DNA of 28,240 nt from Candidatus Zixiibacteriota bacterium (GCA_016213305.1 JACRAV010000403.1:1-28240); one strand, 5' to 3'; positions 7,277 through 12,863 are shown, numbered from the stretch's first letter. A program made the numbers and translations. The notes: generated from the sequence alone by a model not told the origin.

Positions 7277-9757
<2,481 letters not shown>

Positions 9758-9890
9758 CTACTTAGATATCGGCTGTAAGGGCCGATTCTCCCAGCCCAAG
9801 TACCTTCAACGCCCGACCCTTGTCAACGACTAACTCGCAACTTCAACAAGTCGCCGTAAGCATATAAACAACAACGCACTACGGTAACTA

Positions 9891-12548
9891 CTACTGGACG
9901 GTCGTCAGACTCCGAATCTCATAGTCCGGGTGACTCTTCAAATTCTCGACATTGATCTGGATTCTGCCCGGGTCAATGTCCAGCCGGTAGTACCCCAGCC
10001 GGTTGTTTTCGATAATCGGCCAGTCGGCCCGCAGTTCGGCGTTGATCTCATTCTTCATCCGGTAGAGGTACCGCGCCTGATTGAAGCCGATTTCGATATC
10101 GTCCTTGTACACCCACCCGGCGGGCTGTTGTCGCCGCCACCAGGCAAGCTTGGCGAAATACTTGAACGACTTGCCGGTCAGGCGGACGGGAAACCCGTTG
10201 ATCTTCACCAGATACCGGTCGTGTTCGCAGGACCCGTCGATCTCCACCAGTTCCGGGGTAAACCCGATGGTCTGCGAATTGAGCGTCATGGTTTTCATGT
10301 CAACCTCCTCTTGAATATCACACAATTTCATAGTGAGCCGTGCGGCTCGGTTTTTGTCTTTGATGAGTTGTGCCAGCCGTTCTTGCGACAGGCCGGCCAG
10401 CGCGCTTACGCTGTCGAGGCCGTCGGTCTGAAGGGCCAGCATATCGGCACGGGTAAGGATTTCACCGACCGCCCGGTGCAGATCGGCCAATTTGGGCGGC
10501 AGACCGTGGCGCACGCTGAAGGCCAGATCGCGCAGGAGCGGCACATTGGGATTATCGAGATCGTCCGCCTCTATCAGCGAGGCCAGGCCGCGACAGAGAT
10601 GAGCGGCGGTCTCCCCCAGCGAAAGAATCTGCCCCAGATGCAGTTGGTACCGTTCTTCGAGTTTCTGCACGGGCACAAGCCGGCGCCAGTCTTCGAGCAA
10701 GAGCAATCCTTTGAGTGATGCGGACAATCGATAAGACAGGGGCTGGCGGCGATGATTCTCCGGCAGAAGCGGCACCGCCTCTTCGACCGAGTGGTCGAAC
10801 CTCTGATACAGCATTTTCACCGGCAGATTCTGCCGATGCTCAATCCGGGTGAGCATTCCGGGGACCAGCGGCCAGTCGGGAGCGGAAAGCGCGAGGGCAA
10901 GCCAGCCGAATTCCGATTCCGGTGATCTGCGAGCCACCTGTGTCCGCAATTTAGCCGCCTGCCGAACCGACAGTCCGGTGATGGCGACGGCGCGTCCGCG
11001 AGGTGTAACAATCAGGGTATTATCATCGCCGTCAGATCGAATACAGCCACGGCGCTCCAGCGCCCGCACGACGGCCGCCCAATCGAGGTGAGTGTCTCCT
11101 TGAAGCCGGGCATGGAGTGTCCGGGCGTACAGATTCTTCAAATCAGATTCCGATGTAGCCAGACCGCAGACACACATGCCGAGCGCCCAATCTTCCGGCG
11201 GAAGCGAGTCGAACGCCGACGAGAGTCTTTCACTGTCCTGAGAATCGGCGAACGCCACATAACTTTCCCAGAGGATGTCGCGATCAAACTCCGAGCCGGC
11301 GAGCACGATGGCTTTGCCGGGACCGTCGGCGTTCAGCCCCAGCCGACCGGCCCGACCGCACATATTTTCAAACTCGGCGCGGCTGATCGGCGCGAGTGAG
11401 GCGCGGTCATCGTAGGCGCCGACGACGAATTTCACGGTTTCCAGATAGACGGTGTCCACGGGCAGATTGACGCCCATAGCCAGCGTCGTGGTGGCGACCA
11501 GAACGCGCACCTCTCCCCGCGTGAACGCCTCCTCGACAATCCGGCGTTGACGCGGCGAAAGGTCCGAGTTGTGAAAGGCCACTCCACGACTCATCGCCTG
11601 CGACAGGGAACGAACAAGAAAGGACGGCTCCTCGGCGCTCAGTTCCTCAAGGGCGGTTTTGGCCGGGGGAAAAGAAGCGGATGCGGCCAGGCGAAAGGCC
11701 AGATCGACGGTGTTCTGCCGTGATTTCAGAAAGACCAGCGTGGAACCTTCCGTCTGTTTGATCTGGTCGATAAGCCCGTCGATCATGCCGTCAACCGTTT
11801 CGCCAAACGGACAGGCGGTGTTGGTTACCGCTCCGGTGTTGAACGAGCGGAAGCGAATCGATTTTTCGGCCGCCACCCCGACCAGCAGATCGACCGGCCG
11901 CACGGCTTCTTCGACGACGGTCGCGCCAAGCCATTCCCCCAGCTTGGTGAGGGAGTCGCCTCCGAGCACGGCGGAGAGGCCGACCAGCGAGGGTCTGTAG
12001 GTGGAAGAGTTGATACGGGTCAGCAGGCGTTCCAGCACCGCTCCCCGTCGCGGGACGCCGAGCATCTGCAATTCATCAACGACCACCAGACCGATATTGG
12101 CCAGCGCGTCCAGTTCGGTCGTCAACAGCAGGTCGAATTTTTCGTAGATCGACACCGCCAGCTGATAATCACCGCGCAGGAACGCCTCGTCGTTTTCGCT
12201 CCGATCGCCGGTGGCGATCAGGCATTTGACGCCCAGCCCGCCGAAGAGCGCTTCGAATATCCGGTACTTTTCTTCGGCCAGAGATTTCAGGGGAAACAAC
12301 AGCGCCACTTTGCGACGCTCGGCGAGCGCTTTGGCGGCCACCAGTTCGGCGCAGAATGATTTGCCCGACGAGGTCGGCGCGGCGATAATCATCCGCATGC
12401 CGCCGTCGGCGCTACTCCCCGGCTGTCCCAGCAGACCGGCGCGGATCGCCCGTTTCTGCACCGACAGAAGGGTCTCCCCCTGGCGTTGCCGCCAGTTTTC
12501 GATAACCCGTTTTGGGATTCCGTATCGATCCAGTTCCTCAAGTCGCAT
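9891..12548 (-). CDS. Ski2/Hel308-like SF2 helicase with an extra C-terminal winged-helix domain
   Basis: APTSSGKS, PLKSLAEEK, VVDELQ, LSA, GVAFHNSDL, ATTTLAMGVNLP, NMCGRAGR. The likely start is ATG 12548 (MRLEELDRYGIP, SD AAGGAAGGGG); the track's 12716 start overlaps the upstream small ORF. Confidence 0.9.
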   Translation of the reverse strand: MRLEELDRYGIPKRVIENWRQRQGETLLSVQKRAIRAGLLGQPGSSADGGMRMIIAAPTSSGKSFCAELVAAKALAERRKVALLFPLKSLAEEKYRIFEALFGGLGVKCLIATGDRSENDEAFLRGDYQLAVSIYEKFDLLLTTELDALANIGLVVVDELQMLGVPRRGAVLERLLTRINSSTYRPSLVGLSAVLGGDSLTKLGEWLGATVVEEAVRPVDLLVGVAAEKSIRFRSFNTGAVTNTACPFGETVDGMIDGLIDQIKQTEGSTLVFLKSRQNTVDLAFRLAASASFPPAKTALEELSAEEPSFLVRSLSQAMSRGVAFHNSDLSPRQRRIVEEAFTRGEVRVLVATTTLAMGVNLPVDTVYLETVKFVVGAYDDRASLAPISRAEFENMCGRAGRLGLNADGPGKAIVLAGSEFDRDILWESYVAFADSQDSERLSSAFDSLPPEDWALGMCVCGLATSESDLKNLYARTLHARLQGDTHLDWAAVVRALERRGCIRSDGDDNTLIVTPRGRAVAITGLSVRQAAKLRTQVARRSPESEFGWLALALSAPDWPLVPGMLTRIEHRQNLPVKMLYQRFDHSVEEAVPLLPENHRRQPLSYRLSASLKGLLLLEDWRRLVPVQKLEERYQLHLGQILSLGETAAHLCRGLASLIEADDLDNPNVPLLRDLAFSVRHGLPPKLADLHRAVGEILTRADMLALQTDGLDSVSALAGLSQERLAQLIKDKNRAARLTMKLCDIQEEVDMKTMTLNSQTIGFTPELVEIDGSCEHDRYLVKINGFPVRLTGKSFKYFAKLAWWRRQQPAGWVYKDDIEIGFNQARYLYRMKNEINAELRADWPIIENNRLGYYRLDIDPGRIQINVENLKSHPDYEIRSLTTVQ

Positions 12549-12567
12549 ATGGCCCCTTCCTTTATTG

Positions 12568-12789
12568 TCAGACGCTACAACTTTCAAAGCCACACCCCGG
12601 GCAGGAAAAACACCCGCCGAGCCGAACCATCCCGCCACCGCAATCGGGACACGAAGCGGCGTTCTGATAGGCGCAGTCGGAGACCGGCGGCGGACCATAC
12701 GGATTGCCGCCATCAAAATTGGTCAGATACAAGAGCGCTCCGTGTCCTTCGGAGGCAACCATCCCAAACTCCAGATTCAGATTCTGCAT
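12568..12789 (-). CDS. Small zinc-ribbon protein (73 aa) resembling the NrdJ C-terminal Zn-finger
   Basis: MQNLNLEFG…CPDCGGGMVRLGGCFSCPGCGFESCSV; AGGAG SD before ATG 12789; stop 19 nt before the helicase start. Confidence 0.75.
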   Translation of the reverse strand: MQNLNLEFGMVASEGHGALLYLTNFDGGNPYGPPPVSDCAYQNAASCPDCGGGMVRLGGCFSCPGCGFESCSV

Positions 12790-12834
12790 ATGCTCGCTCC
12801 TTTCGGGCCTTTTCCTGATATCGGCCTCGCAAAC

Positions 12835-12863
12835 ATGATACTGCACATTTGTGCAGGTGTCAA
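12835..12863 (-). promoter_or_regulatory. sigma70-type promoter of the Zn-ribbon/helicase operon
   Basis: TTGACA (12863-12858)-N17-TATCAT (12840-12835). Confidence 0.8.
12841..12856. promoter_or_regulatory. Palindromic operator, putative LexA (SOS) box
   Basis: CTGCACA-TT-TGTGCAG fills the -35/-10 spacer and contains TGCAC-N4-GTGCA, matching the TGCNC-N4-GTGCA LexA motif I recall for Fibrobacter succinogenes. Confidence 0.7.

Follow-up and report, generated by a model that had tools for sequence, protein, structure and literature searches.

What would a bacterium do with a helicase of the Hel308 type, and under which circumstances would it produce it? The question is raised by a 28,240-nucleotide (nt) stretch of DNA, hereafter referred to as the window, from the Zixibacteriota metagenome-assembled genome G000 (444 contigs, 2.63 Mb, 85% complete), in which an operon on the minus strand encodes a zinc-ribbon miniprotein and a helicase ending in a probable winged-helix domain; all the coordinates given below are those of the window. 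Public records annotate the helicase merely as 'DEAD/DEAH box helicase', and enzymes of the Hel308/HELQ type are treated as archaeal and metazoan repair enzymes. The data gathered in the present analysis suggest that the operon is probably a LexA-repressed (SOS) operon, one of whose products would be a Hel308-type repair helicase acting at forks or recombination intermediates, and that the palindrome found in its promoter is very probably the LexA binding site. What gives weight to this locus is that a full five-domain Hel308-type helicase turns out to belong to the core genes of an entire bacterial phylum, and that it stands behind the candidate LexA operator of that lineage. A LexA switch as such is familiar; the novelty lies in the module placed under it and in the small regulon without recA. 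In the literature searched, no paper was found that connects LexA with a helicase of the Ski2 or Hel308 type, nor was LexA regulation found to be tied to Zixibacteria, the sole co-mention of the two being a community survey.

The promoter palindrome and its conservation

The promoter and the two genes that follow it are arranged in this way:

12858..12863, minus strand: -35 hexamer TTGACA, a consensus match, located directly 5' of the box at 27/27 orthologous loci of the order
12841..12856, minus strand: candidate LexA operator CTGCACAAATGTGCAG, with 7-bp arms and a 2-nt centre, which fills the promoter spacer
12835..12840, minus strand: -10 hexamer TATCAT, the TAT being directly 3' of the box in nearly all orthologues
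12568..12789, minus strand: open reading frame (ORF) of the zinc-ribbon miniprotein, 73 amino acids (aa), with an AAGGAG-type ribosome-binding site
9891..12548, minus strand: helicase ORF, 885 aa, starting 19 nt after the zinc-ribbon ORF

The operon promoter, TTGACA-17-TATCAT (12863..12835, minus strand), matches the consensus at 11 of 12 positions, and its 17-nt spacer consists of a single C followed by the 16-mer CTGCACAAATGTGCAG (12856..12841), whose plus-strand form is CTGCACATTTGTGCAG. The near-consensus promoter with a palindrome-filled spacer that the initial annotation had described is thereby confirmed. The 16-mer fits the pattern TGCAC-N4-GTGCA exactly. In the window alone, this pattern is matched once with at most one mismatch, against 0.71 matches expected, which is not significant; its exact form occurs twice in the whole 2.63-Mb genome of G000, and a palindromic spacer is present in only 3 of the 305 promoter-like matches of that genome. 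The significance of the box in the helicase operon comes from the fact that the same box, at the same promoter position, is conserved across orthologous loci.

Indeed, the helicase was found in 41 of the 41 genomes sampled from the order of G000, and in 145 of 151 Zixibacteriota genomes from 19 families, mostly as a single full-length match. At each of the 27 full-length helicase loci inspected in the order, the box is located between TTGACA and TAT with 0-2 mismatches, and the same arrangement is present at 19 of the 20 helicase loci representing other families (f5-f18), some variants of the box within the phylum reading GAAC-N4-GTTC. Besides, in the same-genus genome G002, the box reads CTGAACAAATGTTCAG: both of its arms are changed and the symmetry is kept, as expected for the site of a dimeric binder.

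LexA and the reach of the candidate box

G000 encodes one lexA gene (on contig C224; 202.7 bits with the LexA model TIGR00498), the product of which aligns over its full length to the E. coli LexA (E 2.4e-38). The Ala-Gly cleavage site is preserved in it, as is the Ser/Lys dyad (serine of GDSM, lysine of TVKR). The promoter of lexA in G000, TTGACA-t-GTGAACAAATGGGCAG-TATGGT, shows the same architecture as that of the helicase operon, and 13 of the 16 positions of its box match the helicase box. Furthermore, of 30 lexA loci taken from four families of the order to which G000 belongs, 27 show the arrangement TTGACA-N1-box-TA; they yield the lineage consensus CTG[ACT][ACT]C-N4-G[AGT]GCAG, or, in the shorter form put forward here as the candidate LexA box for Zixibacteriota, CTGNNC-N4-GNGCAG. 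The lexA promoters of distant Zixibacteriota families likewise carry the box, and its type co-varies between the helicase and lexA promoters: the helicase box of family f10, CTGAACATCCGTTCAG, shares an odd centre with the lexA box of that family, TTGAACATCCGTTCAG, and in family f7 the two boxes share a GTTCAG right arm. Such co-variation points to one shared regulator having lexA among its targets.

How far does this regulator reach? When G000 was scanned with a position weight matrix built from the lexA-locus sites of the same order, only two strong sites were returned, namely the helicase promoter (28.3 bits, the best score) and the lexA promoter (24.1 bits), the next site scoring 16.3 bits. 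Second-tier sites (C134:116, C57, C141, C138 and C353) were rejected, being located inside ORFs or devoid of dyad symmetry and of a promoter context. In five near-complete relatives, pattern scans again recovered lexA and the helicase, and the members of the regulon were lexA, the helicase and imuA only. The latter was recognized from two of the six palindromic matches inspected, which precede a small RecA-like gene followed by a Y-family-polymerase-like gene, i.e. imuA-imuB (NF033429, E 7e-15). A box of 15-26 bits is present just after the -10 hexamer of the imuA promoter in all 11 relatives that encode imuA; the gene itself was not found in the assembled 85% of G000. Palindromic matches in three other genomes, G016, G027 and G040 (CTGC[TC]CAATTGTGC..), lie within ORFs or beside an HlyD-type or Obg gene, and were not retained as regulon members. 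Genome-wide scans gave no further strong sites, the uvrA, ssb and ruvA promoters not having been inspected individually. Reportedly, lexA and imuA-imuB were singled out by Erill et al. as the two most widely LexA-controlled units. The presence of the box at these two units supports, in silico, the SOS reading of the palindrome already given in the initial annotation.

The LexA box of Fibrobacter succinogenes reads TGCNC-N4-GTGCA, the Cheo box of Gram-positive bacteria CGAACRNRYGTTYG, and the box of E. coli CTGT-N8-ACAG. Like such operators, the Zixibacteriota site is dyad-symmetric, overlaps the core promoter and is found at lexA and imuA-imuB; it differs from them by a consensus with a CTG...CAG outer frame and by a tiny regulon from which recA is excluded.

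This last feature is one of the points that weigh against LexA control of the helicase operon. The recA gene carries no box in 30 relatives and in G000, its best score being 2.6 bits against 24-28 bits at lexA and the helicase. The motif had been expected upstream of both lexA and recA, an expectation that was borne out at lexA (in G000 and in 27 of the 30 relatives) and failed at recA (none of the 30 relatives, nor G000). In addition, two or three operons make up an unusually small regulon, keeping in mind that weaker sites may have been missed and that G000 is 85% complete. A small LexA regulon is still compatible with a box that is present at lexA and imuA and missing at recA, and an SOS regulon of that size lacking recA would be unusual in itself.

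As for recA, another palindrome, CTGACA-N5-TGTCAG, is conserved some 150 nt upstream of it (G000:C172:678; recA loci L163-L192). With at most one mismatch, this palindrome is found at recA in 19 of 29 relatives, mainly in families f1 and f4, together with one f2 genome and none from f3. Four exact copies are present in G000 versus 0.14 expected, all of them intergenic (C172:678, C50:1164, C356:1364 and C11:7474), and of the three not linked to recA, one is located upstream of a DUF3276/PurA-like protein that binds single-stranded DNA, one at the 5' end of the ORF of a GIY-YIG nuclease, and one where a contig ends. Together, these sites form a candidate second DNA-damage regulon.

The association between box and helicase also recurs outside the phylum. 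A profile-free search returned many homologues of 840-930 aa, with about 30-35% identity to the helicase; those whose contigs were looked up give Pfam matches to the helicase core, with Helicase_dom4_arc in several of them and Trans_reg_C (PF00486) in 4 of 6. Among the five distant homologue loci with DNA, three show a LexA-type dyad that lies within the promoter or overlaps it. The first, on an Armatimonadota contig (placed via GyrB), reads TTGACA-at-CGAACAAATGTTCG-c-TATACT, with a perfect Cheo box; the second reads TTGACA-at-AGAACATATGTTTG-a-TATAAT; and in the third, ACTGAATATAATTTCAGT overlaps the -10 hexamer. No box was found upstream of the distant homologue loci L271 and L273, which makes the association recurrent, not universal. 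Among metagenomic homologues, a perfect-core site is present in 15 of 69 upstream regions versus 1 of 65 coding control windows, and several of these 15 loci read TTGACA-N-CTGAAAATATTTTCAG-TATACT. Relatives of the helicase in at least one other phylum repeat the arrangement with box types of their own. The target gene is thus constant and the box changes with the lineage, a pattern that is difficult to account for if LexA is not involved.

Could the palindrome nevertheless be the operator of a repressor other than LexA, such as the operon's own winged-helix domain acting in autoregulation, which would leave the operon outside the RecA/LexA response? The operon does encode a domain of the DNA-binding type, probably also made as a free protein, and a recA gene devoid of the box would be in agreement with this view. 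However, the box is present at lexA itself and at imuA-imuB, as reported above (27/30 and 11/11 relatives, respectively), and its dyad has the same frame as known LexA boxes (GAAC-N4-GTTC / CTG-N10-CAG), whereas the usual binding sites of OmpR-type domains are direct repeats. Moreover, the helicase promoters of other lineages carry the LexA-type box of their own lineage, the perfect Cheo box included. We therefore regard a non-LexA repressor as quite unlikely.

In the scheme that we infer for LexA binding and damage induction, a LexA dimer sitting on the 16-bp palindrome between the -35 and -10 hexamers would block RNA polymerase. Upon DNA damage, RecA on single-stranded DNA would trigger the self-cleavage of LexA and the promoter would fire, giving rise to the six-Cys zinc-ribbon protein and to the five-domain Hel308-type helicase with its OmpR-type winged helix. 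Since the helicase box is the most symmetric and the highest-scoring site, repression is expected to be tight, and induction to occur late or only upon strong damage, if the operator-strength rules of E. coli apply. The LexA regulon would be very small, being made of lexA, the helicase operon and, where present, imuA-imuB, and the helicase would be its main inducible repair activity.

The helicase and its probable winged-helix tail

The helicase ORF can be divided as follows:

10314..12548, minus strand: Hel308-type superfamily 2 (SF2) helicase core, residues 1 to ~745, with two RecA domains, a winged helix, a ratchet and a helix-loop-helix
10296..10310, minus strand: internal ribosome-binding site GAGGAGG (10304..10310) and in-frame ATG (10296..10298), just before the tail domain
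9891..10256, minus strand: C-terminal OmpR/PhoB-type winged-helix domain, residues ~765-885, and stop codon, assigned by fold comparison with weak scores

What kind of helicase is this? Residues 1-744 are covered by the archaeal Hel308 models of NCBIfam (E 1.2e-82), and the best PDB sequence match is 2va8 (E 2.5e-51, residues 9-704), with 9b15, 2p6r and 2zj2 also among the matches. The AlphaFold2 model of the full-length protein reaches a predicted local distance difference test (pLDDT) score of 92.2, and Foldseek aligns it to Hel308/Hjm structures (2va8, 9b15, 2zj5 and 2p6r) over about 750 columns, with target-normalised template modelling (TM) scores of 0.84-0.89; the corresponding scores are 0.74-0.81 for most Pol-theta helicase chains. 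The Hel308-like nature of the protein, as proposed in the initial annotation, is thus supported both by sequence (2va8) and by fold. Motifs I (GKS), II (DELQ) and VI (GRAGR) are intact, several of their residues being invariant in the order-level alignment, and G62, K63, D158, E159 and G398/A400-R402 are invariant among 45 homologues. The five-domain architecture and the intact motifs I, II and VI are shared with archaeal Hel308/Hjm (2va8, 2p6r, 2zj2/2zj5/2zj8 and 9b15), HELQ and Pol-theta. In contrast to Hel308 and HELQ, the Zixibacteriota helicase is bacterial, stands behind a LexA-type operator, is paired with a zinc-ribbon miniprotein and bears on a linker an additional winged helix of the OmpR type (about 135 aa), with an internal start.

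On the side of the protein too, some data count on the opposite side of the scale. The helicase scores far below the Hel308 equivalog cut-offs (278 versus 887 bits for NF002654, 203 versus 1200 bits for NF040935), and is a Hel308 relative, not an equivalog. It reads DELQ at motif II, unlike the DExH of archaeal Hel308, and FHNSDL at motif IVa, where the archaeal enzymes have F/YHHAGL. Given these two motifs and the sub-cut-off scores, the activity of the helicase may differ from that of archaeal Hel308. As for its substrate, the helicase would most likely act on stalled or broken forks or on recombination intermediates, like Hel308, HELQ and the Pol-theta helicase.

Bacteria possess another SF2 helicase related to Ski2 and Hel308, namely Lhr, described for mycobacteria and E. 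coli as a Ski2-like, DNA-damage-inducible helicase that responds to mitomycin C. The Zixibacteriota helicase is only distantly related to it (5v9x, E 3.2e-6); the domains beyond the core are different ones, and the C-terminal domain of Lhr is absent.

The sharing of a Ski2-like motor also underlies the proposal that the operon might be an anti-phage defence system of the Hachiman type, encoding a HamB-like helicase and perhaps switched on through the SOS response during infection; the initial annotation had given an anti-phage role, with HamB as an example, as its alternative. Ski2-like helicases do act in defence, the PADLOC HamB models match the helicase at E 1e-30, and the HamB structure 8vx9 matches it at E 4.3e-16. 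Nevertheless, the similarity to HamB is partial, being confined to parts of the shared SF2 core (residues 44-207 only in the case of 8vx9), whereas that to Hel308 covers residues 9-704 and extends to the fold over some 750 columns. Besides, no HamA (DUF1837) or other partner was found among the neighbours TonB, zinc ribbon and LonA, PADLOC detected nothing else in the ten ORFs tested, and a gene present in 145/151 genomes of the phylum, in fixed synteny within the order, is a conserved core gene unlike those of patchy defence islands. A role in anti-phage defence is disfavoured by these data, to the point of being highly improbable.

With respect to the tail, the last ~135 residues are the most conserved part of the helicase protein, and their AlphaFold2 model has a pLDDT of 86.4. 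The winged helix-turn-helix announced by the initial annotation holds in so far as all 50 top Foldseek PDB matches of the tail are DNA-binding domains of the OmpR/PhoB family, which would further specify it as OmpR-type; the scores of these matches are weak (best E 0.025), a further point to be set among the reservations. Pfam gave no match at E <=0.01 for the helicase protein. The winged helix would probably bind duplex DNA and hold the helicase there.

Just before the tail, about 25 of 27 orthologues have AGGAG placed 6-9 nt ahead of an in-frame ATG, the residues encoded by this segment being variable (KEEVDM, KEDKM, KESKM, KEPAM). Because AGGAG-ATG is kept at the nucleotide level while the residues vary, a free winged-helix isoform of about 135 aa, produced from the internal start, is likely. 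The internal ribosome-binding site would then probably supply the winged helix as a separate protein in addition to the fused form.

These features lend themselves to another reading, according to which the operon would be LexA-controlled and the helicase would mainly be a regulator or an RNA/R-loop enzyme, targeted in a sequence-specific manner by its winged helix, with the free isoform as a second-tier transcription factor. The OmpR-type domain is indeed better conserved than the rest of the protein, the internal start has been retained among orthologues, a distant relative is fused to a histidine-kinase-type ATPase domain beside a sigma-54 response regulator, and recA and two other DNA-related genes carry a palindrome of a different type. 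Against this, the whole five-domain Hel308 core is kept with its ATPase and helicase motifs intact, its relatives Hel308, HELQ and the Pol-theta helicase function in DNA repair, and no target motif emerged for the winged helix. A mainly regulatory or RNA-directed function thus appears unlikely. A related possibility is that the operon constitutes the first tier of a two-step response, in which LexA would first release the helicase and its free winged-helix isoform, and the winged helix or a partner would then control the CTGACA-N5-TGTCAG regulon (recA, the GIY-YIG nuclease and the PurA-like protein). This would explain the departure of recA from the LexA regulon in the phylum; we hold it to be very unlikely.

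The distant relative just mentioned, P0219 (1068 aa), has the histidine-kinase-type ATPase domain in place of the winged helix, and its gene adjoins that of the sigma-54 response regulator.

The preferred reading, a LexA-repressed repair helicase, makes the protein a candidate new SOS effector with three odd features: the fusion to a winged helix, the nested internal start and a partner whose zinc ribbon resembles that of a ribonucleotide reductase.

The zinc-ribbon gene, lon and their surroundings

In the zinc-ribbon protein, the N-terminus varies, whereas the C-terminus with its six Cys (CPDC...C..C..CG...C) is conserved. Its ORF is located upstream of the helicase at all 27 loci of the order, all six Cys being present in most of them. 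In some other orders, the box is 36-135 nt away from the helicase start, from which it can be inferred that there is no room for the zinc-ribbon ORF. The C-terminus of the protein weakly matches the last 32 residues of the B12-dependent ribonucleotide reductase NF006417 (E 7.7e-5), and its Cys spacing is like that of the C-terminal zinc finger of class II (B12-dependent) reductases. It is distinguished from the latter by being stand-alone, with a variable N-terminus and a place in a putative SOS operon, no reductase being encoded in the window. Prediction of a complex between the zinc ribbon and the helicase gave a score of 0.01, the predicted fold of the zinc ribbon itself being uncertain, a result that counts neither for nor against an interaction. 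A role of the zinc ribbon alongside the helicase would be conjectural.

In four relatives (L040, L043, L047 and L048), a hairpin-rich, repeat-like insert of 300-400 nt lies between the zinc-ribbon gene and the helicase, as exemplified by GTCAGGAG...CTCCTGAC and AGATCCTGAA...TTCAGGAT. The distance from the box to the helicase start amounts to 600-730 nt in these relatives.

On either side, the neighbours of the operon are of the housekeeping type, with a Ton operon upstream and a LonA gene downstream, and the tonB / zinc-ribbon / helicase / lon synteny is fixed within the order. The downstream gene is the following:

7277..9757, minus strand: third, divergent LonA paralogue directly downstream of the helicase (TIGR00763, 696 bits)

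Three LonA genes are present in each of five genomes, and the helicase-adjacent copy is the most divergent, with 651-711 bits versus 893-980 bits for the full-length copies, so that the 'variant lon' noticed in the initial annotation can be specified as the third and most divergent of three paralogues. With its 696 bits, the copy of G000 passes the NCBIfam LonA cut-off (TIGR00763). It reads GAPGTGKA at the Walker A motif and VVLIED at the Walker B motif, where another copy reads GPPGVGKT and LLDEVD. In relatives, lon is found downstream of the helicase at 24 loci.

Is lon part of the operon? The initial annotation had correctly stated that no obvious terminator precedes it, since no terminator-like site was found in the 133-nt spacer (9758-9890, minus strand) that separates the stop codon of the helicase (9891) from the start of lon (9757). 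Yet the spacer holds a candidate lon promoter, with TTGACA at 9826..9821 and TACTTG at 9802..9797, and a TTGACA-type candidate promoter recurs in the 100-135-nt helicase-lon spacer of several relatives. The lon gene may therefore have its own promoter, and its membership of the operon is uncertain, which has to be counted with the reservations made above. Co-transcription of lon with the helicase operon, and a functional link between them, are possible, and a role for Lon in the response would be conditional on them.

Finally, a (G)CCGATA motif is found 10-40 nt upstream of the start codons in the leaders of the helicase operon (~12810-12820, minus strand), lexA, imuA and lon, both in G000 and in relatives. 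Genome-wide, this motif shows a weak sense-strand enrichment upstream of crude ORF calls (146 versus 86).

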